Part shown: positions 7,995 to 57,574 of the stretch, one piece after another
Position numbering within the stretch: position 1 is the first letter of the stretch
How the letters are laid out: the number at the start of each line of letters is the position of its first letter
Assembly (NCBI GenBank): GCA_963708045.1
Contig: OY970181.1
Coordinates: 3,740 to 67,739 of the forward strand
DNA length: 64,000 bases
Direction: 5' to 3'
Source: an uncultured bacterium
GTDB lineage: Bacteria; Patescibacteriota; Patescibacteriia; CAIQCM01
The notes under the pieces: generated by a model
Databases searched by the model: none
Told to the model about the DNA's origin: nothing
The model's input: only the letters and a program-made list of their open reading frames with translations
Translations under genes and position numbers: made by a program

Positions 7995-9176
7995 CTAACC
8001 AGGCTTGCGATCTGGTCTTAAGAACCATAAACCAATCGCAGCAACAATAAGTCCGACGCCGCAAAAGCCAAAGACCGTAACAATAATCTCACCACCGACC
8101 GGCTTTCCTGCTACGCCCAACGCTGTCCCGACCAAAACAAACGCATAGCCAGCGCGGCCGATAAGTGATTGCAGCGATCCATAAGTGGCGCGAAAGTGTT
8201 CGCCGACATGTTGTTGAGTAAAGGTATCAACGAGCGGCGAAAAAAATCCGCGTCCCAATTCGTGCAAAACAATCAGCCCAAGCAATGGATAGACGGACTT
8301 GGTCACAAAAACAAAGCCAAGACCAACGCCGGAAATGAGAAACGACATAGCAATCATCCCTGCTTCGCGACCAACCGGTTTTTTACTTCGTCTTATGTAA
8401 AAACCAGCCAGAGCGGCAGCGCCATAAATCGGTATCCACGACCAAGCCACTCCTACGCTTCCAACCCTTTCTTTTAGAAGCGGTGTCCAGTACAGATTGA
8501 ACGGAATAACCAACCCCATGAGCATTGAAGCGGCTGATGCCCAAATTAGACTAGGCGATTTCTTTAACGCGCCAACACTTTCCTTAAGAGCGTGAAATTC
8601 GGAGACACGGTGTACTGGTTCGCCGCTGTCATTCATCACGAAAACCGCGGTAATAAGCGCCGCCGCCGCAAAAAGTGCGCCCATTGCCCAGCCAAGGCGC
8701 GGATAACTCGGGGCAAGAAAAATACCCGAGAAAAAACCACCCACAATCATCGCTAGCGACGAAGCAATTGACCCTGTGGCAAAAGCATGACGTAATTTTT
8801 CTTGCTCATTGCGGTGACGCAAAGCATCGGTAAGCCAAGCCTGGAGTGCGCCCGAAGTAAATGCATTACCGATCGCCACCAAACATTCAGCAATAACCGC
8901 CGTCCAAAAACCACGCACGCCAGCGTAAAATGCCGACCCAAAACAAAGTGCCAAAGCACCGCAACAAATAGAAAAGCGCCTGCTTCGCCCATCGGCAATC
9001 ATCCCCGTCGGAACTTCAAAGATAACGACACAGAACCAAAAGATAACATTTACCAAGGCAATGTCGGAAAGGGTAAGCCCGTTTGCAATGAGAAGCGGTA
9101 TGTAGATAACCACCGTCATACTTGTTGAGAGTCCGACGAGCAAGTTATAAAGAACGAAAACGCGTGTTGGATGCAT
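7995..9176 (-). CDS. MFS-family transporter
   Basis: About 12 predicted TM segments and the MFS motif region (GMIADGRSRRF). 393 aa. Confidence 0.7.
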   Translation of the reverse strand: MHPTRVFVLYNLLVGLSTSMTVVIYIPLLIANGLTLSDIALVNVIFWFCVVIFEVPTGMIADGRSRRFSICCGALALCFGSAFYAGVRGFWTAVIAECLVAIGNAFTSGALQAWLTDALRHRNEQEKLRHAFATGSIASSLAMIVGGFFSGIFLAPSYPRLGWAMGALFAAAALITAVFVMNDSGEPVHRVSEFHALKESVGALKKSPSLIWASAASMLMGLVIPFNLYWTPLLKERVGSVGVAWSWIPIYGAAALAGFYIRRSKKPVGREAGMIAMSFLISGVGLGFVFVTKSVYPLLGLIVLHELGRGFFSPLVDTFTQQHVGEHFRATYGSLQSLIGRAGYAFVLVGTALGVAGKPVGGEIIVTVFGFCGVGLIVAAIGLWFLRPDRKPG

Positions 9177-9199
9177 AGTAACCTCCGGTTAATAACAAA

Positions 9200-9225
9200 C
9201 CGACTCGGGAATATTCCCGAGTCGG
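9200..9225. promoter_or_regulatory. Perfect 26-bp palindrome (candidate operator) upstream of the MFS transporter gene
   Basis: CCGACTCGGGAATATTCCCGAGTCGG is fully self-complementary and sits 24-50 bp upstream of the MFS start codon. Confidence 0.4.
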
Positions 9226-9601
9226 TATAAGTTCTGAATATTTTCTAAATATTTATTTTTCAGATCTTATGTGACTCGGCAATACGAAAGCAGTCGGGCG
9301 ATCGGCGCCGACGGTATTCGTAATGGAGTAATTCATAAGATGTTTCATATCTATTAGTAGCAGTAACACGACACATTATTTCCGTCAAGGATTTTTACTT
9401 AAAAAATATAAAATTATGAAAACTAACCTCTCAATAAATTTAGCTCTGTTAAGCCAAAAAATCTATCAAGAAAACCTTGAAAGACGGAATTTTTTCGCCG
9501 AAACGGTTAAGCCCTTAATCTCAAAAAATAAAGATAAAAAAAAATAATGATGATTATTTCTAATTTTTGAGGCGAAAAAATTCCGGCTTTCAAGGTTTAT
9601 C

Positions 9602-12817: not shown

Positions 12818-13034
12818 CTTACACGACCCTTCTTCGGCGCCAAGCCGAAAAAATTGTTGTTGATTGGTGAACTGAAAGGAACACTTTTGCCTTTAAATAA
12901 TCAAAAACAAAAGCGCATTTTCCAGTTATTTTAACTGTAAAACATACCATAAATTATCATTTTTGTCAACATCAATACCTATTTGTAAAGGTTTCGCCTC
13001 AACAAAATAAAAGTTAAAAGTTAACAGTTAAAAG

Positions 13035-49316: not shown

Positions 49317-50549
49317 TCAAACTCCTCGTGCCAACATCGTCTTCTCCAACCGACCGAGGGCAAGAATGTAAGCGGCGGTGCGCAGATTAACTTTGTATTC
49401 GTCTTTAATTTTCCAAATCGCGGCAAAATTTTCTACAATAATTGGTTCAAGTTTGGCAAGCACTTCAGCTTCTTTCCAAGAGACCCGCGCCAAGTTTTGC
49501 ACCCATTCAAAATACGAAACCGTAACCCCGCCGGCATTCGCTAAAACGTCGGGAACGACCGGAATGCCGCGCGTTTCAAAAATATTTTCCGCTTCGGTCG
49601 TTGTTGGACCGTTCGCTAGCTCAACAACCGCCTTGGTTTTTATTTTTGCCGCGTTCTCAACGGTCAAAACATTTTCCAGCGCCGCTGGCACAAGAATGTC
49701 ACAGTCAATTTCCAAAAGCTCGGCATTGGTAATTTGTTTGGCGCCAGGAAAATCAACAAGCGATCCGTGTTTCTCTTTCCACGCATGAACACTGATCGGC
49801 TCCAGGCCAGACTCGCTAAAAATTCCGCCTTTGGAATCAGAAAGAGCGACGATTTTGTATCCAGATGCGTGCGCAAGGCGGGCAAAGTGGTAGCCGACGT
49901 TCCCGATTCCCTGAACCGCCAGCCGCGTTTCGCTTGGTAATAAATTTAATTTTGTCGCGAGTTCGCGTAGGGCATAAAAACCACCTTGACCAGTCGCAGC
50001 TTCGCGGCCTTCCGAGCCATAGAGCGCGAGTGGTTTCCCCGTAAAGGCACCGAAAACATTTTCTTTAGTGATTTTGGAAAGTTCGTCCACCATCCACGCC
50101 ATTTCGCGCGGACCAGTGCCAACGTCCGGCGCCGGCACATCACGCCTTTCACCAATCACAGAACTTAACTCACGGACAAAGCCGCGCGAAAGCGCTTCTA
50201 ATTCGGTCGCCGAAAGTTTTTTCGGATCAACGGCAATACCGCCCTTGCCGCCGCCAAAAGGAATTCCCGAGACTGCGGTTTTCATTGTCATCCAAAGCGC
50301 GAGTGCCTTAACTTCATCCAAATCAGCCTGCGGATGAAAACGAATGCCGCCCTTATACGGTCCGCGTGAATTGTTCCATTGCACGCGGTAGGCGTCAAAA
50401 TCGCGCATTTCCCCGCTATCCATCACGACCGAAATTTTAAATTGAAAAATCTCGTTCGGCCGGCTTAATTTTTCTAAAACGCGGGGATCTAATTTAATCA
50501 CCGCCGCCGCGCGCGTTAATTGATCAATGGCATTTTTAAAGGTATTCAT
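49317..50549 (-). CDS. gdh: Glutamate dehydrogenase (NAD(P)+)
   Basis: GDH signature KGGIRFHP, GGGKGG, and Rossmann GxGNVG. Start set at MNTFKNAI; the ORF track start is 50630. Confidence 0.85.
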   Translation of the reverse strand: MNTFKNAIDQLTRAAAVIKLDPRVLEKLSRPNEIFQFKISVVMDSGEMRDFDAYRVQWNNSRGPYKGGIRFHPQADLDEVKALALWMTMKTAVSGIPFGGGKGGIAVDPKKLSATELEALSRGFVRELSSVIGERRDVPAPDVGTGPREMAWMVDELSKITKENVFGAFTGKPLALYGSEGREAATGQGGFYALRELATKLNLLPSETRLAVQGIGNVGYHFARLAHASGYKIVALSDSKGGIFSESGLEPISVHAWKEKHGSLVDFPGAKQITNAELLEIDCDILVPAALENVLTVENAAKIKTKAVVELANGPTTTEAENIFETRGIPVVPDVLANAGGVTVSYFEWVQNLARVSWKEAEVLAKLEPIIVENFAAIWKIKDEYKVNLRTAAYILALGRLEKTMLARGV

Positions 50550-50662
50550 AGAAGTCCAGATTATCCCACCCGCCCGGAAACTGCAATACGAAACACATGT
50601 ACCATGTACCACATACCACACACCATCCATTAATGAGTGGTTTATGGTTCATGGTACATGGT

Positions 50663-52345
50663 TCATCGCGGTGCTTTTTCCAAAATCCTAACCGTCCCGT
50701 GCAAAGCGCGGACTTCTACGAGGTCGCCGTCGTGAAGAAGTTCGGTCGCATTTTTGGTGCCGATAATACAGGGTTTACCTAGCTCGCGGGAAACAATCGC
50801 CGCGTGCGAGGTTATCCCGCCCTCGTTCGTCACAATGCCGGCGGCTTTTTTCATAAGCGGCACAAATTCCGGCCGCGTCATTCCCGTTACCAAAATTTGC
50901 CCTTCTTTAAATTTAGAAAATTCATTAACCGTTCGCACAACGCAAACGATTCCTTTAGCAAACCCCTGCGACGCGACTTTGCCCGCGATTACCGAATCAT
51001 GTTCCTTGCCGCCAATCTTATTCTCTAACTCTTTGCGAAGAGACAACGCCTCGTCGCCATAAAGCACCCGATAGTCAACCCCTTCGGCAATGTAGATGGC
51101 ACCATTGTTACGACGATCCTCTAGTGTCGCCTTGGTAAGCACACCTTTTAAAACACTGGCAACCTCATTATGATTTAGATACGATAAGCAATTTACAGGA
51201 ATACCTGTGCGCCGTTCTATTTCTTGCAAGACTCGCAAAAAAGCGACAATGCCCATTAAATTATATTTCTTTCGCGATTCGCGCCAAGCGGTTAATTTTT
51301 GAAAAAACGCCAACGGATTAACCTTAAGCCCGCGCTGTCGCAATATTTTTGTGATTATTGCTTCGCGCGTTTCGCTAAACGTTTCCAGTTCGTGAATTTC
51401 CATTTTTATAGCTTCGGGGTTGGATAAATATTTATCAAGCTCAGCCACGATTTCTTCGTTAGAGATTGAACGATAAACCGCGTAGTTTGATTGATAATAA
51501 TCAAAATGTCTGACGTAATTTTTTATATCAGTACTTTTTTCCACAAAATCTTTAATCATTTTAAGACGAGCACTACCACTCCAGCGTTTATGTAAAAGCG
51601 TTCGCGCGATTTTTAACAAAGCCAGTTTCCGCTCGCGATCAATAGAAAGCTCGTTGGTTGTCGTGAGTGCGACTGTGTCCTCAACTGAAAGATTATTTTT
51701 TTGCGCAATTCTTTTTATTTCCTCTTGATCAAAACCGGCGTCAAAAGAATCTATAAATAAACTTGCGTCCCAGAACGGATCATACGCAACTAAAATGCTG
51801 GCGGAAAATTCCGCAAGCTCGTGATCGTTTAAAGACGCGAGAATCTCACCACTGTTTTCCAAATAAATATTTTCAATTTTTGATGCCGCCCGCTCGTATT
51901 CAGCATAAAGCAAATCAAAATCCGCCATTTTTGAATATTGGCGATAAACTTGATTGGACCATTTGTTCATTTCGTCAAAATCCCAATATGCCCAAAAGTA
52001 ACCTTTCTGCGCGTAATAGATAAAATGTTTTTCAAATTTATTTCCTAGACCACAATTAATACGGACAAAAGGTGAAAAAAGCGTAAACGGCACACCTTCC
52101 CCTTCTTGACGATAGGGTTTAATTTCGTTTGATTTTTTACTCGGCTCAATTTTCATTTCAATCAACTGCGCAAGCGGAATATCGTAGGTCGTGCAAATTT
52201 TTTCTATCGTTTCAAACTTAATCCCATCCACTTTATTGTGAAAGAGAGCGGTCACCGTATTGCGATTCAAACCCGTGTCTTCAGCAATTTCCAAAATTGT
52301 CTTCCCTAATTTTTCGCTTAATTCCTTAATTTTTATTGTAATCAT
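50663..52345 (-). CDS. XRE-type HTH DNA-binding domain fused to a C-terminal PEP-utilizing swivel (phosphohistidine) domain
   Basis: N-terminal HTH (ELSEKLGKTILEIAEDTGLNRNTVTALFHN) and C-terminal GGITSHAAIVSRELGKPCIIG. Start set at MITIKIK, because the ORF track's extension to 52981 runs through the promoter and overlaps the opposite-strand gene. Confidence 0.65.
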   Translation of the reverse strand: MITIKIKELSEKLGKTILEIAEDTGLNRNTVTALFHNKVDGIKFETIEKICTTYDIPLAQLIEMKIEPSKKSNEIKPYRQEGEGVPFTLFSPFVRINCGLGNKFEKHFIYYAQKGYFWAYWDFDEMNKWSNQVYRQYSKMADFDLLYAEYERAASKIENIYLENSGEILASLNDHELAEFSASILVAYDPFWDASLFIDSFDAGFDQEEIKRIAQKNNLSVEDTVALTTTNELSIDRERKLALLKIARTLLHKRWSGSARLKMIKDFVEKSTDIKNYVRHFDYYQSNYAVYRSISNEEIVAELDKYLSNPEAIKMEIHELETFSETREAIITKILRQRGLKVNPLAFFQKLTAWRESRKKYNLMGIVAFLRVLQEIERRTGIPVNCLSYLNHNEVASVLKGVLTKATLEDRRNNGAIYIAEGVDYRVLYGDEALSLRKELENKIGGKEHDSVIAGKVASQGFAKGIVCVVRTVNEFSKFKEGQILVTGMTRPEFVPLMKKAAGIVTNEGGITSHAAIVSRELGKPCIIGTKNATELLHDGDLVEVRALHGTVRILEKAPR

Positions 52346-52360
52346 AAAATTATATGAATA

Positions 52361-52461
52361 GTGTACTAGGCACACTATATAATATCTATTCACCTTTGTC
52401 AAGATTGTGCCTAGTACACTAACCAACCACCCTTGACAAATCATTAAAAACGTGTTAGCAT
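52361..52461. promoter_or_regulatory. Divergent promoter region with a pair of 14-bp inverted repeats (candidate operator for the HTH-swivel protein)
   Basis: GTGTACTAGGCACA (52361-52374) and its reverse complement TGTGCCTAGTACAC (52406-52419). Minus-strand promoter TTGACA-17-TATAGT (52374-52402). Plus-strand promoter TTGACA-17-TAGCAT (52433-52461). Confidence 0.5.
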
Positions 52462-52519
52462 AACCTATTCCTGATGAACTTCTGAACTGGATCCAAAACC
52501 TGATACGGAGGAATGAACG

Positions 52520-53101
52520 ATGAACGACCTTTCTATTCTGTTTCTGCGCCACGGCGCGACCACCCCGCTCGACAAGACCGTTCCTGTGAGCCAAGGCGAC
52601 CCAGCTCGCGTCCTTACGAGCGAAGGCATTGCCCGCGCCGAAGAGGTCGCCACTGACCTCGCATCGCAGAGCTTCGGGCTCATGATCACGTCCGGGGTAT
52701 CTCGGACGGTTCAAACCGGCGCCATCGTCGCGGCCAAGCAGCAGAAGCTGGTTGACATCATGAGCATACGTAGCCTGTACATGCCACTCGACCAAAACGA
52801 GGTCAACAGGTTGTTCGCGCTTTTCGATAAAGCGACAACCCCACGGCTTGCCCAGGAAGTCATGGAGATCCGAAGTATGTGCGAGGCACAGGCAGAAATC
52901 ATTCTCGCCGAGTGTAAACTCCGCAGCAACCCATATACGCTGGCCGTGAACCATATGGTTCTGATTCAACTCATCGCCCACGCAATGGGCGCCTCGGAAA
53001 ACGTCCTCGACGCGAAACTGGAGCCTTGCGACGGACTCTGGGTCAATATCACAGCCGAGGGGACAACCTGGCTCCGCTACTCAGCCCCCAAGGCGGCCTA
53101 G
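52520..53101 (+). CDS. Histidine phosphatase family protein (phosphoglycerate mutase-like)
   Basis: RHG motif (LFLRHGAT) at the N-terminus. Strong GGAGG RBS and noticeably higher GC than the surroundings. Confidence 0.65.
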   Translation: MNDLSILFLRHGATTPLDKTVPVSQGDPARVLTSEGIARAEEVATDLASQSFGLMITSGVSRTVQTGAIVAAKQQKLVDIMSIRSLYMPLDQNEVNRLFALFDKATTPRLAQEVMEIRSMCEAQAEIILAECKLRSNPYTLAVNHMVLIQLIAHAMGASENVLDAKLEPCDGLWVNITAEGTTWLRYSAPKAA

Positions 53102-53212
53102 TCCAACAACCCTAACATCCAACCCCGGATCTGCACGAAGCAGTCCGGACGCGAAATACCCGACGTGTACGTTTGGCCGAAACCAGACAACAAACGCCGG
53201 GTATTCTTGTAT

Positions 53213-53890
53213 CTACTCATTTTTGTCGAGGCGAAACCTCGGCCAATCAGAATCTATGCGCTTTTTCCCAATCAACCCTAACACAAAATCGCGGTATTTC
53301 TTTTTATTTTTAAATTGATTTAATACTATTTCTGAATTATCTACAATACTCTCTCCTTGTCTAATACCGATGTAATCAAAGTAACTAGACCATTTAAATT
53401 TATTGAGTAAACGATTTAATAGTTGCATATCGTGGCAATTGGGCGTAATTGCTTCCACTGGATTTAAGTGAATATAGCGCGTTAAATGAAGTAAGTATGA
53501 ATTATCTTTGATATGTTTGCTTTTAAAAACTCCTTGGAACAATACTCCCGATCTTTCATAACGCTTATTAAAATACATAGTGTACCCAGTTAATAATTTT
53601 TGAATATATTTTGATATCCCGTTTTCTTGTACCTGCTCCAGTATCAAATGAAAATGATTTGGCATTAAACAATATGCGACAATTTTAACCAAAGCCTCTG
53701 GCCGATTTGGTCGAGGCGAAACCTCGGCCAAAAGACGATTAAAATGATTAATTGGTTCAAGCGAGTTAAATAATTTCATACCAAGAATGAACCGCTCATA
53801 ATCTTTGTTTTGTAAAAAGACACGCCTTTTATCTGTCCCCCTATTATAAATGTGATAAAATTCACCATTAGTAAAAACCAGGTTACGCAT
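53213..53890 (-). CDS. REP-associated tyrosine transposase (RAYT, IS200-like Y1 transposase)
   Basis: YHIYNRG, HUH motif NHFHLIL, and conserved Tyr region. Flanked by REP hairpins. Confidence 0.7.
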   Translation of the reverse strand: MRNLVFTNGEFYHIYNRGTDKRRVFLQNKDYERFILGMKLFNSLEPINHFNRLLAEVSPRPNRPEALVKIVAYCLMPNHFHLILEQVQENGISKYIQKLLTGYTMYFNKRYERSGVLFQGVFKSKHIKDNSYLLHLTRYIHLNPVEAITPNCHDMQLLNRLLNKFKWSSYFDYIGIRQGESIVDNSEIVLNQFKNKKKYRDFVLGLIGKKRIDSDWPRFRLDKNE

Positions 53891-54113
53891 AATTTTTTTA
53901 AAAACTTAAGACTTATGATCCAACCTAGGCTCGACATAATTAATTCTCAATAAATGTGTCCGTTGTGGATAACACCCCTATTTTGTTGAGGCGAAACCTC
54001 GACAAAATAGGGATTTCCAAGAGTCTCAAGTGTTAGTCATCACCAACACCCGCTTTAACAAAACATCAAATGAATTAGAAATTGGTCTTTGGCCGAGGTT
54101 TCGCCTCGGCCAA
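53222..54113. repeat. REP-like palindromes (GGCCGAGG-TTTCG-CCTCGGCC type) around and inside the RAYT gene
   Basis: Four copies at ~53222-53243, 53708-53740 (inside the RAYT CDS), 53979-54010 and 54089-54113, in both orientations. Confidence 0.7.
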
Positions 54114-54187
54114 TCGCCTTGGTCAATTATTTTAAATAGCCGCCCCGATAGTAATCGGGGCGGCTATAATGCTTCATGTTCGATGTT

Positions 54188-55093
54188 TCACTTCGAGAGG
54201 TATTTCTCGGCTTCCAGTGCGGCCATACAGCCGGTGCCGGCGGCGGAAATTGCTTGGCGATAACGCCAGTCGGCAACGTCGCCGCAAACAAAAACACCGG
54301 GAAGTGCCGTTCGCACAAAACCCTCGGGGACGATGTAACCTTTTTCCATTGTTAACTGCCCTTCAAAAATTTTCGTATTTGGACTGTGGCCGATTGCTAC
54401 AAAAACTCCGTCAATCGGCATTTCCTCTTCAGCACCAGTTACGTTATTTTTTACGCGAACGCCGGTAATTTTTTCCTCACCAAGATAACCGACAACGCTA
54501 GCACTAAAAACAAATTTTATTTTCGGGTTAGCTTCGGCGCGCTCCTGCATTATTTTTGAGGCGCGCATCGCTTCGGAGCGAACCAGAATAATTACTTCAC
54601 TCGCGAATTTAGTCAAAAAATTTGCTTCTTCAAGCGCCGCGTCCCCCGCGCCGACGACGATTACTTTTTTGTTCTTAAAGAAGAACCCATCGCAGGTGGC
54701 GCAAGCAGAAAGTCCTTTGCCGTAATATTTATTTTCACCCGGAAGATCCAACCGTCGCGCCGAAGCGCCGGTCGCAATAATTACTGATTCGGCTTCAAAA
54801 ATTTCGTCGCCAATAAAAACTTTTTTCGGTTCCGACTTAAGATCAACAGCCGTCACCGTTTTTTCAACCACCCGCGTGCCAAATTTTTCCGCTTGTTTGC
54901 GCATCGCGGACATCAAATCCGAACCGAGTATTCCTTCGGGGAAACCGGGAAAATTTTCAATTTCGGTCGTGGTGATTAATTGTCCGCCAATTTGCTCGCC
55001 GCAAAAAACCAATGGTGCCAGTTCCGCGCGCGCCGCATATATTGCCGCCGTGTATCCAGCCGGACCCGAGCCGATGATGATGACTTTTTCCAT
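54188..55093 (-). CDS. trxB: Thioredoxin reductase
   Basis: FAD motif GSGPAGYTAA, redox CATCDGFF, and NADPH motif GAGDAALEEA. Confidence 0.9.
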   Translation of the reverse strand: MEKVIIIGSGPAGYTAAIYAARAELAPLVFCGEQIGGQLITTTEIENFPGFPEGILGSDLMSAMRKQAEKFGTRVVEKTVTAVDLKSEPKKVFIGDEIFEAESVIIATGASARRLDLPGENKYYGKGLSACATCDGFFFKNKKVIVVGAGDAALEEANFLTKFASEVIILVRSEAMRASKIMQERAEANPKIKFVFSASVVGYLGEEKITGVRVKNNVTGAEEEMPIDGVFVAIGHSPNTKIFEGQLTMEKGYIVPEGFVRTALPGVFVCGDVADWRYRQAISAAGTGCMAALEAEKYLSK

Positions 55094-55158
55094 AGTTTTA
55101 GGTGTTAGGTGTTAGATGTTAGGTATTAGGTTCCAACGAAACCTAATACCTTGAACCT

Positions 55159-55488
55159 TTAACCTAAAACCTTTTCTAATTTCTTAGCCACTTCTTCTTT
55201 TCCAAGCGCGCCGACCCATTTGTCAACGACAACGCCGTTTTTAAAAATGAAAAAAGCAGGAATGGATTGCACGCCCATTTTTTCAGCAACAGAAGTTCCC
55301 TCTTCAACATTATATTTTCCAACAATCGCTTTGCCGTCGTACTCATGTGCCAATTCTTCAACAATCGGACCCATTAAGCGACAGGGCGGACACCACGACG
55401 CCCAAAAGTCGGTAAGAACGGGCATTGTCTTGGACGCCTCAATCACTTCGTTATTAAAATTATTATCATTTAATACAACCTCGGACAT
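55159..55488 (-). CDS. trxA: Thioredoxin
   Basis: WCPPC active site in a thioredoxin fold. 109 aa. Confidence 0.85.
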   Translation of the reverse strand: MSEVVLNDNNFNNEVIEASKTMPVLTDFWASWCPPCRLMGPIVEELAHEYDGKAIVGKYNVEEGTSVAEKMGVQSIPAFFIFKNGVVVDKWVGALGKEEVAKKLEKVLG

Positions 55489-55579
55489 ATTGTTCGTTGT
55501 TTAAATATCTAATTTCTAATGTCTAATATCTAATCCGACGACGACCGTCATTAGACATTAGGTATTAGATATTAGGTAT

Positions 55580-57574
55580 TTACGTAAACTGTATCTTCCT
55601 CTCCTTCTTTTCAATATTCAAGAAAACCAGTTCGTCGCCAACTGCGAGAACGGGGCGAATTTTTATTTTACAACCAAACTCGGTGCCAGCGCGAACTTCT
55701 TTGACGGCCGCTTTCATTGATTGCAATTCCACAATTTCTCCAGTTTCCAATTCCGCACCCTCGCGATAAACGCGCACCGAGGCGGTCTTGGTTACTTTTC
55801 CATCTTTGACCACACCACCCACGATCATTGAACTTTTTTCCGTGCGGAAAATTGCCAAAATCTGACCGCGACCAAGTTCGGTTATAATAACCTCTTCAGG
55901 AAGCAATTCTTGAAGCGCGGCTTTGACATCGTCTAAAATATCGTAAATGACTTTGGCTTTTTTAACAACCACCTTTTTGTCACGCGCCAAATTTTCTACC
56001 GGCGTCGGCACCAAAACGTTAAAACCATAAACAACGGCGCCCGATGCTTCGGCGCGGATAATATCGGATTCGTTAACGTTCCCGAGTCCGCGCGAAACAA
56101 TTTCTACGCCCACCTCGGGGTTGCGGAATTTTTCTAGTGATGAAGAAAGCGCTTCAAGTGAACCAAGCACGTCAGTCTTAAGAACCACCTTAACCATTTT
56201 CTTGGTTTCTTTTTCTTCGCTTGTCGCGGCCACGGCTGAAACTTTGGTCATTGTTGCGCGACCAGCTTCTTTCACGTCCTTTTCTAATCCTTTAATGGTT
56301 TCCGGAACAATAATAACATCGCCGACCGACGGTGCCGCTTTTAATCCCAATATTTTAACCGGCATTCCCGGCAACGACTCTTTAAGCGCGCGATTGTTCC
56401 AATCGCGCATTGCGCGCACTCGTCCGTAAAGCATATTGCCGATCGCGAGATAGTCATTTACCTTAAGCGTGCCACCAGCAATGAGTACCGTCGCGACCAC
56501 GCCTTCGTTTTTGTCTATGTGCGACTCAACAACCGTTGCCACAGCGCGACGAGCCGGATTGGCCAGCAATTTTTCTTTATTAAGATCAGCGACGAGCAAA
56601 ACCATTTCCAAAAGCGCGTCAATGTTTTTTCCTTCTTTGGCCGAAACTGGAACAAAGGGAATTTTTCCGCCCCAATCTTCAGCTTGAACGTTATGCTCGG
56701 CAAGCTGGCGTTTTACTTTTTCTGGATCAGCGTCCGGCTTGTCAATTTTATTCATCGCCACCACAAAAGGGATTTTGGCCGCTTCAATAATTCCCAAGGC
56801 TTCCAAGGTTTGTGGTTGAACGCCGTCGTCGGCCGCAACAACCAAAATTGCAACGTCGGCAATTCGCGCGCCGCGCGAGCGCATTGTCATAAAAGCTTCG
56901 TGGCCGGGCGTATCAATAAAAGTAATTTTACGATCCCGTTTTTCCACCTGATAAGCGCCAATGTGCTGGGTAATACCGCCGGCTTCGCCGCCCATTACGT
57001 TTGTCGCGCGAATCGCGTCCAAAAGTTTTGTCTTGCCGTGGTCAACGTGACCCATCACAACGACAACCGGCGGACGCGGGGTGGTTGCGTTCGCGTCATT
57101 TCCCAAAATTCCTGCCAATTTTTCTTCCATTGAAGCACTGCCGCTTTCAACTGTTTCCGACTCAACTTCCGGTTCGGTCTTAAAACCAAGATCTTCGGCG
57201 ACGATCGTTGCTGTTTCAAAATCAATCCGTTCATTCATTGAAGCCAGAATTCCATTTTTCATCAATTCCGAAATAACCCGCGTGACCGGCAAATTTAAGC
57301 GTCCGGAAAAATCTTTAACTGTCACGAGTTTGGGAAGCTTAATTGAACCGCCCGAAACAGCCATAGCTTTTTCAACTTCAATCTTTTCTTTGGAAAGCTT
57401 GGTCATTCGCTCGCGCTCTTGGCGCCAGCGCGGCCATTCGCGAACAACGCGAGCAGCGAGCTGATCGTCAATTTTGATCGCCCGTTTGCCAATATCAAGT
57501 CCATGCTCTGGGAGCACAACAAAAAGTTCAGCCGTGGTGGTGCGTAATTTTCGCGCAAGTTCGGTTATATTCAT
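55580..57574 (-). CDS. infB: Translation initiation factor IF-2
   Basis: G-domain [21 protein letters not shown]. 664 aa. Confidence 0.9.

Follow-up and report, generated by a model that had tools for sequence, protein, structure and literature searches.

An HUH/Y1 gene of TnpA-REP type by predicted fold carries in-frame copies of its own hairpin in a Patescibacteria-type genome

A stretch of 64,000 nucleotides from an uncultured bacterium (GTDB lineage Bacteria; Patescibacteriota; Patescibacteriia; CAIQCM01; contig OY970181.1 of GenBank assembly GCA_963708045.1, positions 3,740 to 67,739), referred to below as the window, contains a gene for an HUH/Y1 protein that resembles the transposases associated with repetitive extragenic palindromic (REP) sequences, the RAYT or TnpA-REP proteins. 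Copies of a short hairpin are found upstream of this gene and within its open reading frame (ORF), and a degenerate copy lies elsewhere in the window. Amino acids are abbreviated aa. The features are as follows.

53213..53890, (-) strand: intact HUH/Y1 (RAYT/TnpA-REP-like) gene, 225 aa, defined from the ORF listing, Pfam, invariant residues and fold.
54089..54113: distal hairpin upstream of the gene, centred ~211 nt from the ATG; TTGGCCGAGG-TTTCG-CCTCGGCCAA, perfect 10-bp stem.
53976..54012: proximal hairpin upstream of the gene, centred ~104 nt from the ATG; CCCTATTTTGTTGAGG-CGAAA-CCTCGACAAAATAGGG, 16-bp stem with one G.T.
53706..53732: internal in-frame hairpin, coding for aa 53-62 (LLAEVSPRPN); 11-bp stem with one G.T.
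53222..53246: C-terminal in-frame hairpin, coding for aa 215-223 (DWPRFRLDK); 7-bp stem, G.T included.
12980..13009: degenerate dispersed hairpin copy, TATTTGTAAAGGTTTCGCCTCAACAAAATA; the two (-) strand ORFs on either side leave an intergenic gap of 217 nt.

In the orientation of the gene, the order is thus a hairpin at about -211, a hairpin at about -104, the ATG, the aa 53-62 hairpin, the aa 215-223 hairpin and the stop codon.

The predicted protein matches Pfam Y1_Tnp (PF01797) with 35.3 bits (cutoff 23, E 1.4e-8). It contains the motif MPNHFHLIL, in which H79 and H81 of NHFHLIL form the HUH pair, and the catalytic tyrosine is Y139 in RYIHLNP, so that the HuH-Y spacing is the ordinary 58 aa (H81 to Y139). 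A database search found 5,836 relatives. An alignment of 31 sequences, comprising relatives and the window protein, has 26 invariant columns that include H79, H81 and Y139, and the window protein retains all 26. At 225 aa it is also full length, homologues being 217-236 aa. The AlphaFold (AF2) model has a mean predicted local distance difference test (pLDDT) score of 84, which is low only at residues 51-60 (mean 55) and 212-225 (<50), the two hairpin-encoded peptides. Foldseek comparison with the PDB placed first 4er8_A, the E. coli TnpA-REP bound to a REP hairpin (E 3.3e-6), followed by the TnpA proteins of IS608 and ISDra2, all with probability 1.0. The model therefore has a TnpA-type fold and, on this predicted structure, the protein is of the TnpA-REP kind. 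No second Y1 gene or second copy of the 53213-53890 gene was detected in the 64-kb window using tblastn; weak tblastn matches at 11.5 kb, within an unrelated 336-aa ORF, were rejected as chance.

The 13-mer core of the hairpin, GAGGCGAAACCTC, occurs exactly at 53228, 53713 and 53988 on the (+) strand and at 54095 on the (-) strand, all within 900 bp, whereas 0.07 occurrences would be expected by chance and none of 100 shuffled sequences reached four. Folded as DNA, the distal upstream copy gives -13.3 kcal/mol (z -5.7), the proximal upstream copy -15.1 kcal/mol (z -7.9), the internal copy -10.6 kcal/mol (z -3.4) and the C-terminal copy, which ends 2 codons before the stop codon, -5.3 kcal/mol. 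The loop of the distal upstream copy is inverted relative to the other three. Both upstream copies fold separately when tested as one long REPIN-type hairpin, and a tandem duplication of the upstream module was unsupported beyond the hairpin itself. An Rfam scan of the window found only tRNAs, with no match at the hairpins.

The first-pass annotation of this region had identified a REP-associated Y1/HUH transposase gene, and the fold (4er8_A top), the Pfam Y1_Tnp match and NHFHLIL all agree with this, as do the HUH histidines and the catalytic tyrosine, the check it had proposed. A copy in frame inside the ORF is likewise confirmed, since 53706-53732 codes for LLAEVSPRPN. Its description of copies on both flanks needs correction: repeats do lie at the gene, but the 53222 copy falls within the last codons of the ORF, so that two copies are translated and the true flanking copies are both upstream. 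The 21-mer that it quoted, GGCCGAGGTTTCGCCTCGGCC, is exact at 54091-54111, but the other copies are variants, with the arms GTCGAGG/CCTCGGC and GTTGAGG/CCTCGAC.

The closest homologues (49-61% identity) have VEAKPR, VEVSPRP, VEASPR or AEASPRR at the column of the internal copy, conforming to the pattern E-[AV]-[KS]-P-R, and SRFRLD (SRFRLDK or SRFRLDQ) at the C-terminus. At both sites these peptides are the same hairpin translated, in either loop orientation. In the DNA of three loci encoding homologues of 55-60% identity, L081, L084 and L086, the hairpin core is found at the same four places. The 54089-54113 copy is orthologous in all three, and the 53976-54012 copy is orthologous in L084 and L081 and degenerate in L086. 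At the internal site, the core is invariant in the window, L081 and L084, while the adjacent codons vary.

L086 is also syntenic with the window, sharing genes for initiation factor 2 (IF2), thioredoxin, thioredoxin reductase, the Y1 protein, a His-phosphatase, a helix-turn-helix (HTH)/phosphoenolpyruvate (PEP)-utiliser and glutamate dehydrogenase. Over 49320-57574 of the window, identities to L086 are 90.5% for IF2, 86% for thioredoxin reductase, 80.6% for thioredoxin, 77.6% for glutamate dehydrogenase, 70.7% for the PEP-utiliser and 68% for the His-phosphatase. The Y1 proteins are only 57% identical against 68-90% for their neighbours, indicating that the Y1 gene evolves faster than everything around it, and the shared order among diverged neighbours indicates that it has occupied this chromosomal position through substantial divergence. 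With one copy in the 64-kb window and a neighbourhood shared with L086, the gene has the properties of a single-copy, vertically inherited gene.

These comparisons bear on whether the RAYT gene was recently invaded, and possibly inactivated, by its own REP. Seen in isolation the internal copy does look recent, as it is nearly identical to the flanking copies, and the gene has a GC content of 33%, unlike its surroundings (46% for the window). However, the site is occupied in homologues of 55-60% identity, one of them syntenic, and in-frame copies are present in 44 of 84 loci in the wider family described below. The ORF is full length with all 26 invariant residues, and the internal copy breaks no frame and removes no catalytic residue. 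In the AF2 model it lies in a surface loop, flanked by helix 50-56 and strand 68-75 and immediately preceding the HUH strand; this low-pLDDT loop is predicted to be disordered and is away from the core strands. In 81 of 81 loci the Y1 gene is poorer in GC than the DNA on either side (mean 35% versus 45%), and low GC is thus a family trait and no sign of recent arrival or transfer. The first-pass annotation had called the internal copy unusual, perhaps recent and possibly inactivating, and had named conservation of the internal sequence among orthologues as the finding that would speak against an inserted AEVSPRPN segment. The alignment shows exactly that conservation, at the same column, in orthologues that carry the hairpin there, and the gene is intact; by the annotation's own standard the recent-insertion reading fails, and we regard it as extremely improbable.

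The hairpins could alternatively be the left and right ends of an autonomous IS200/IS605-type insertion sequence (IS), the internal copy being a relic of a nested or rearranged end. The Y1 fold is common to the IS608 and ISDra2 TnpA proteins, which share the catalytic motifs and presumably the single-strand chemistry; hairpins bracket the gene at both ends, forming an AT-rich block of ~900 bp bounded at 53222 and 54113, and there is no GTAG foot. IS200/IS605 elements have distinct, co-oriented left-end and right-end imperfect hairpins. Here, in contrast, the same palindrome is found at both ends in random relative orientation, and relatives also have solo copies of it and inverted doublets unaccompanied by the gene. 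The gene keeps its chromosomal position next to neighbours of 68-90% identity, has no second copy in 64 kb and no accompanying tnpB, and is not a mobile unit as far as seen. An IS is therefore quite improbable.

The arrangement extends well beyond the closest homologues. A scan of species-representative genomes gave at least 80 loci at 36-48% identity among the matches listed, and among these the hosts are almost all labelled as Patescibacteria or candidate phyla radiation (CPR)-type metagenome-assembled genomes (MAGs), with few other labels. Under a strict criterion of perfect stems of at least 7 bp, 62 of 87 loci have a repeated, locus-specific hairpin; 59 have an upstream copy, mostly 15-60 nt from the start codon, 54 have one that coincides with or closely follows the stop codon, and 34 have one in frame inside the gene. 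Under a relaxed criterion that tolerates as many as 2 mismatches against a core of 15-17 nt, and with duplicate loci counted once, the corresponding figures are 73 of 84 loci with a repeated hairpin and 44 with an in-frame copy, where the chance expectation is ~1e-3 per locus (our calculation for a 15-mer, up to 2 mismatches and a 600-nt ORF). In window-protein coordinates, 37 of the internal copies, in 37 of 84 loci, fall at aa 51-63, immediately ahead of the HUH strand, and 13 fall at aa 148-164, just after the Tyr helix. The layout is thus fixed: upstream copies, an in-frame copy at aa ~51-63, sometimes another at aa ~148-164, and a last copy at the stop codon or shortly beyond it. Cognate hairpins have a density of 4.1/kb adjoining the gene, 1.44/kb inside it and 0.076/kb in distant flanks, which corresponds to a ~19-fold enrichment inside the gene over distant flanks. 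One locus, L113 (43% identity), has an inverted hairpin doublet inside the gene (878-913, at ~aa 58-66) in addition to upstream and downstream copies.

The hairpin itself varies by genome (TACAAGGTTCAACCTTGTA, ACTTGGAGGCTCGGCCTCCAAGT and ACTTAGAAGCTTAGCTTCTAAGT are examples), with one sequence at all sites of a locus. The distance between hairpin stems correlates with the distance between proteins (Spearman 0.45; reached in 0 of 2000 permutations). The hairpin is thus gene-specific, uniform within each locus and co-diverging with the protein. Two MAGs each have two paralogous Y1 genes (L023 and L043; L063 and L065), and the hairpin is distinct for each paralogue, indicating that it belongs to the gene and not to the genome.

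This variation also bears on the possibility that conservation concerns the peptide of a functional loop (such as QGSTL or EVSPRP) and not the DNA, with the extragenic hairpins as by-products copied from the gene. One frame is preferred, in 34 of 50 internal hairpins, and some homologues retain HGKTL or QGKSF from non-palindromic codons. Nevertheless, the peptides of different lineages are wholly different (EVSPRP, EAKPR, LGGSASK, LRSLASK, QGSTL), and each corresponds to the local non-coding hairpin. In the window, a single hairpin is read in different frames at the two sites (AEVSPRP versus PRFRLD), and the loop region has low model confidence. Conservation of the peptide is accordingly a highly improbable explanation.

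Turnover of the hairpin can be followed among the close relatives. At the outer hairpins of L086 a variant, TCGAGG-CCGAG-CCTCGA, present as doublets, has taken over. The proximal upstream and internal copies of L086 are still of the older type, as relics in decay, and this mixture indicates turnover in progress. The window copies are mosaics of an old arm, GTCGAGG/CCTCGAC, as in L081 and L084, and a new arm, GGCCGAGG/CCTCGGCC. The new-arm change is common to three window copies, suggesting, at the sequence level, a concerted change. At the site corresponding to window aa 51-56, compared in L002, L005, L012, L008 and L011, the palindrome CAAGGTTCAACCTTG is read as QGSTL. Relatives without a perfect CAAGGTTCAACCTTG hairpin have the related peptides HGKTL, QGKSF and QGTTI, encoded by non-palindromic codons, which indicates that hairpins decay in place. 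Decayed remnants persist at the same site in homologues scored as lacking the hairpin, such as CATGGTAAGACACTG (HGKTL) compared with CAAGGTTCAACCTTG (QGSTL) of their relatives.

The explanation we favour, and consider likely, is that the gene is a resident, single-copy, vertically inherited RAYT/TnpA-REP-like HUH/Y1 gene which, together with its cognate hairpin, has a fixed layout across a large clade of mostly Patescibacteria-type genomes. On this explanation the internal copy has long been part of the module, where it is tolerated and maintained, and is not a recent inactivating insertion. HUH/Y1 enzymes such as TnpA-REP and IS608 TnpA bind single-stranded DNA hairpins, cleave beside them and rejoin strands. 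By analogy with these two, the window protein would bind and cut its own hairpin in single-stranded DNA. It would act mainly beside its own gene, so that the local copies, including those that are translated, would be repeatedly renewed or homogenised, either by short-patch conversion or by the transfer of strands from one hairpin to another. Any copy that missed such renewal would decay in place, as is seen in L086, L012 and L008.

Several observations weigh against this explanation or parts of it. The protein scores only 45.3 bits with NCBIfam REP_Tyr_transpos, below the cutoff of 80, and a profile search of PDB sequences gave no significant match, so that the relation to TnpA-REP is seen only through the fold search; in sequence, the window protein is remote from canonical RAYTs. 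Inspection of all copies in the window and relatives revealed no conserved GTAG/GTGG (GT[AG]G) foot, the feet consisting of T-rich/A-rich extensions of the palindrome. The hairpin is barely dispersed in the 64-kb window, where the degenerate copy at 12980-13009 is the only extra one. When the aa 51-63 copy is scored as present or absent on a neighbour-joining (NJ) tree of 84 proteins, at least 20 state changes are required, compared with a random mean of 27.6 and minimum of 21. Its presence is only weakly clustered, and repeated independent insertion into one permissive loop may account for this. Relative loop orientation between sites is random across loci (24 same, 25 inverted) and stem mismatches have no strand bias (11 G.T versus 7 A.C), so that neither indicates a specific active strand or distinguishes RNA from DNA. 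Loops with and without a recognisable hairpin average 29.3 and 26.3 aa, a difference of ~3 aa, and this test found no clean empty sites and no clean signature of insertion or deletion. As far as these sequences go, the pattern fits a site of long standing at which decay recurs and nearby copies restore the hairpin each time.

A further explanation overlaps with the one favoured here and differs from it only in invoking selection for function. The internal hairpin, and the upstream ones, would be a selected cis-regulatory site, bound by the protein in the DNA or mRNA of its gene, through which it represses or limits its own expression or makes programmed cuts in its own gene. In keeping with this, the position is the same in deeply diverged genes even as the sequence changes with that of the flanks, the internal core is invariant in the window, L081 and L084 amid varying codons, hairpins are enriched 19-fold inside the gene over distant flanks, and an upstream copy typically precedes the start codon by 25-60 nt. 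Selection of this kind is harder to reconcile with the absence of a recognisable internal copy from about half of the homologues, the decay seen in L086, L012 and L008, the 20 or more gains and losses on the tree and the random loop orientation. A promoter and terminator scan around the Y1 gene gave results no better than shuffled sequences, with no U-tract or promoter logic. A cis-regulatory role is thus possible but doubtful.

More speculatively, and in our estimation unlikely, the enzymes of the whole clade, with more than 5,800 relatives mainly in Patescibacteria-type genomes, may have the gene that encodes them as their intended target. Their hairpin would be kept in frame at two or three fixed sites that bracket the catalytic core, and also in the 5′ and 3′ flanks, and would be renewed together with the specificity of the enzyme. 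If so, self-targeted cleavage or strand exchange could serve autoregulation or a cassette-like exchange of gene segments. To our knowledge, such a self-targeting arrangement of hairpins is undescribed for REP/RAYT systems.

Dispersal of the hairpin away from the gene is seen mainly in relatives. The degenerate window copy at 12980-13009 has its right arm, CCTCAACAAAATA, in common with the proximal upstream copy at 53976-54012. This solo copy, 40 kb from the gene, is of the long AT-stem subtype, as is the proximal upstream copy. L081 has extra intergenic copies, namely an inverted doublet 1.4 kb upstream and a copy 6 kb downstream. A metagenome scan for RYCGAGGCGAAACCTCGRY, used only qualitatively, matched at least 120 contigs, with a Y1 gene on 7 of them; about a dozen carry inverted doublets, 8-30 nt apart, without a Y1 gene. 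Many of the single matches are probably unrelated sequence, for example in a recurring coding context. Restriction of the copies to this one locus, which the first-pass annotation had listed as counting against its REP assignment, therefore nearly holds within the window and does not hold in relatives, where intergenic singles and inverted doublets are found. Judged from these sequences, the element acts like a low-copy REP/REPIN family in relatives.

TnpA-REP/RAYT genes of the E. coli type with flanking REPs (the 'REPtron') were reportedly described by Nunvar in 2010 and by Ton-Hoang and Messing in 2012, with the structure PDB 4ER8. The window system resembles them in the HUH/Y1 fold, for which 4er8_A is the best match, in the HUH and Tyr residues, in having one gene copy (in the 64-kb window) at a stable chromosomal position, in the flanking of the gene by one short GC-rich palindrome that in relatives is also found elsewhere, sometimes as inverted doublets, and in the gene-specific pairing of hairpin and protein. 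It differs in that the protein is only ~15% identical to 4ER8, falls under the NCBIfam RAYT cutoff and is longer (225 aa), with extra helices. The window hairpins have no GTAG/GTGG foot and a very low copy number, and hairpins occur at fixed positions within the coding sequence.

REPs located in frame within their own transposase gene are already known from another subclass: they are a predominant and unique feature of tnpA-REP subclass 2.4/RAYT group 4, which has REPs with GT[AG]G feet and occurs mainly in Cyanobacteria and Bacteroidetes (Quentin et al. 2018, PMC6006769). As in subclass 2.4, the in-frame copies here lie in peripheral, variable regions and are a predominant trait of the group. 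By the published definition of that subclass, the present family is distinct in its HuH-Y spacing of 58 aa and in the location of its copies at aa 51-63, aa 148-164 and the C-terminus, as well as in the missing GT[AG]G foot and the mainly Patescibacteria-type MAG hosts. New here are that the positions are fixed, that turnover is concerted and that the arrangement is spread over a very large Patescibacteria-centred clade. In-frame palindromic repeats are also found in ordinary genes, as the Rickettsia palindromic elements (RPEs) and intragenic REPs (Di Nocera et al. 2013, PMC3733652). These too are short palindromic repeats translated in loops or termini of functional proteins. They are scattered over many unrelated genes, whereas the hairpins described here prefer the cognate transposase-like gene, ~19-fold and at conserved positions. 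A full-text search found no paper linking RAYT/TnpA-REP to Patescibacteria-type genomes; its coverage of the literature was incomplete, and the negative result amounts to absence of evidence only.

The chief case of a transposase that has been domesticated and coexists with mini-elements of its own is provided by REP/RAYT systems, in which the co-evolution of the two partners is still poorly understood. The family extends REP/RAYT biology to Patescibacteria-type genomes and offers a compact natural readout of this co-evolution, with the same hairpin in the non-coding flanks and in the reading frame of the enzyme. Because hairpin and protein change together, the rules that pair protein residues with stem bases could be mined from sequence. 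With three to five sites in ~900 bp, the module would be a simple system in which to study action in cis and the homogenisation of hairpins. For annotation, finding a REP within a RAYT gene is no reason to call a pseudogene.

Other features were noted around the module. A GTGTT...AACAC motif follows each upstream hairpin, at 54030-54049 and ~53956-53976 in the window. Both are kept in L081, L084 and L086 (GTGTTGGC..GCTGACA and GTGTTA..TAACAC) and could form short stems; they may be promoter or 5′-untranslated region (UTR) elements. A perfect 14-bp hairpin, ATAGCCGCCCCGAT-agta-ATCGGGGCGGCTAT, at 54136-54167 directly follows the stop codon of the thioredoxin reductase gene and is probably its terminator, dividing that gene from the hairpin module. 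On the other side, the listed 772-aa ORF at 50663-52981 is over-extended, as it overlaps the (+) strand His-phosphatase gene at 52520-53101, and by homology the HTH/PEP-utiliser gene starts near 52345. In L086, glutamate dehydrogenase is followed by a gene of the bAvd/23S rRNA intervening sequence protein (IVP) type (9077-9427) with a GC content of 35%.

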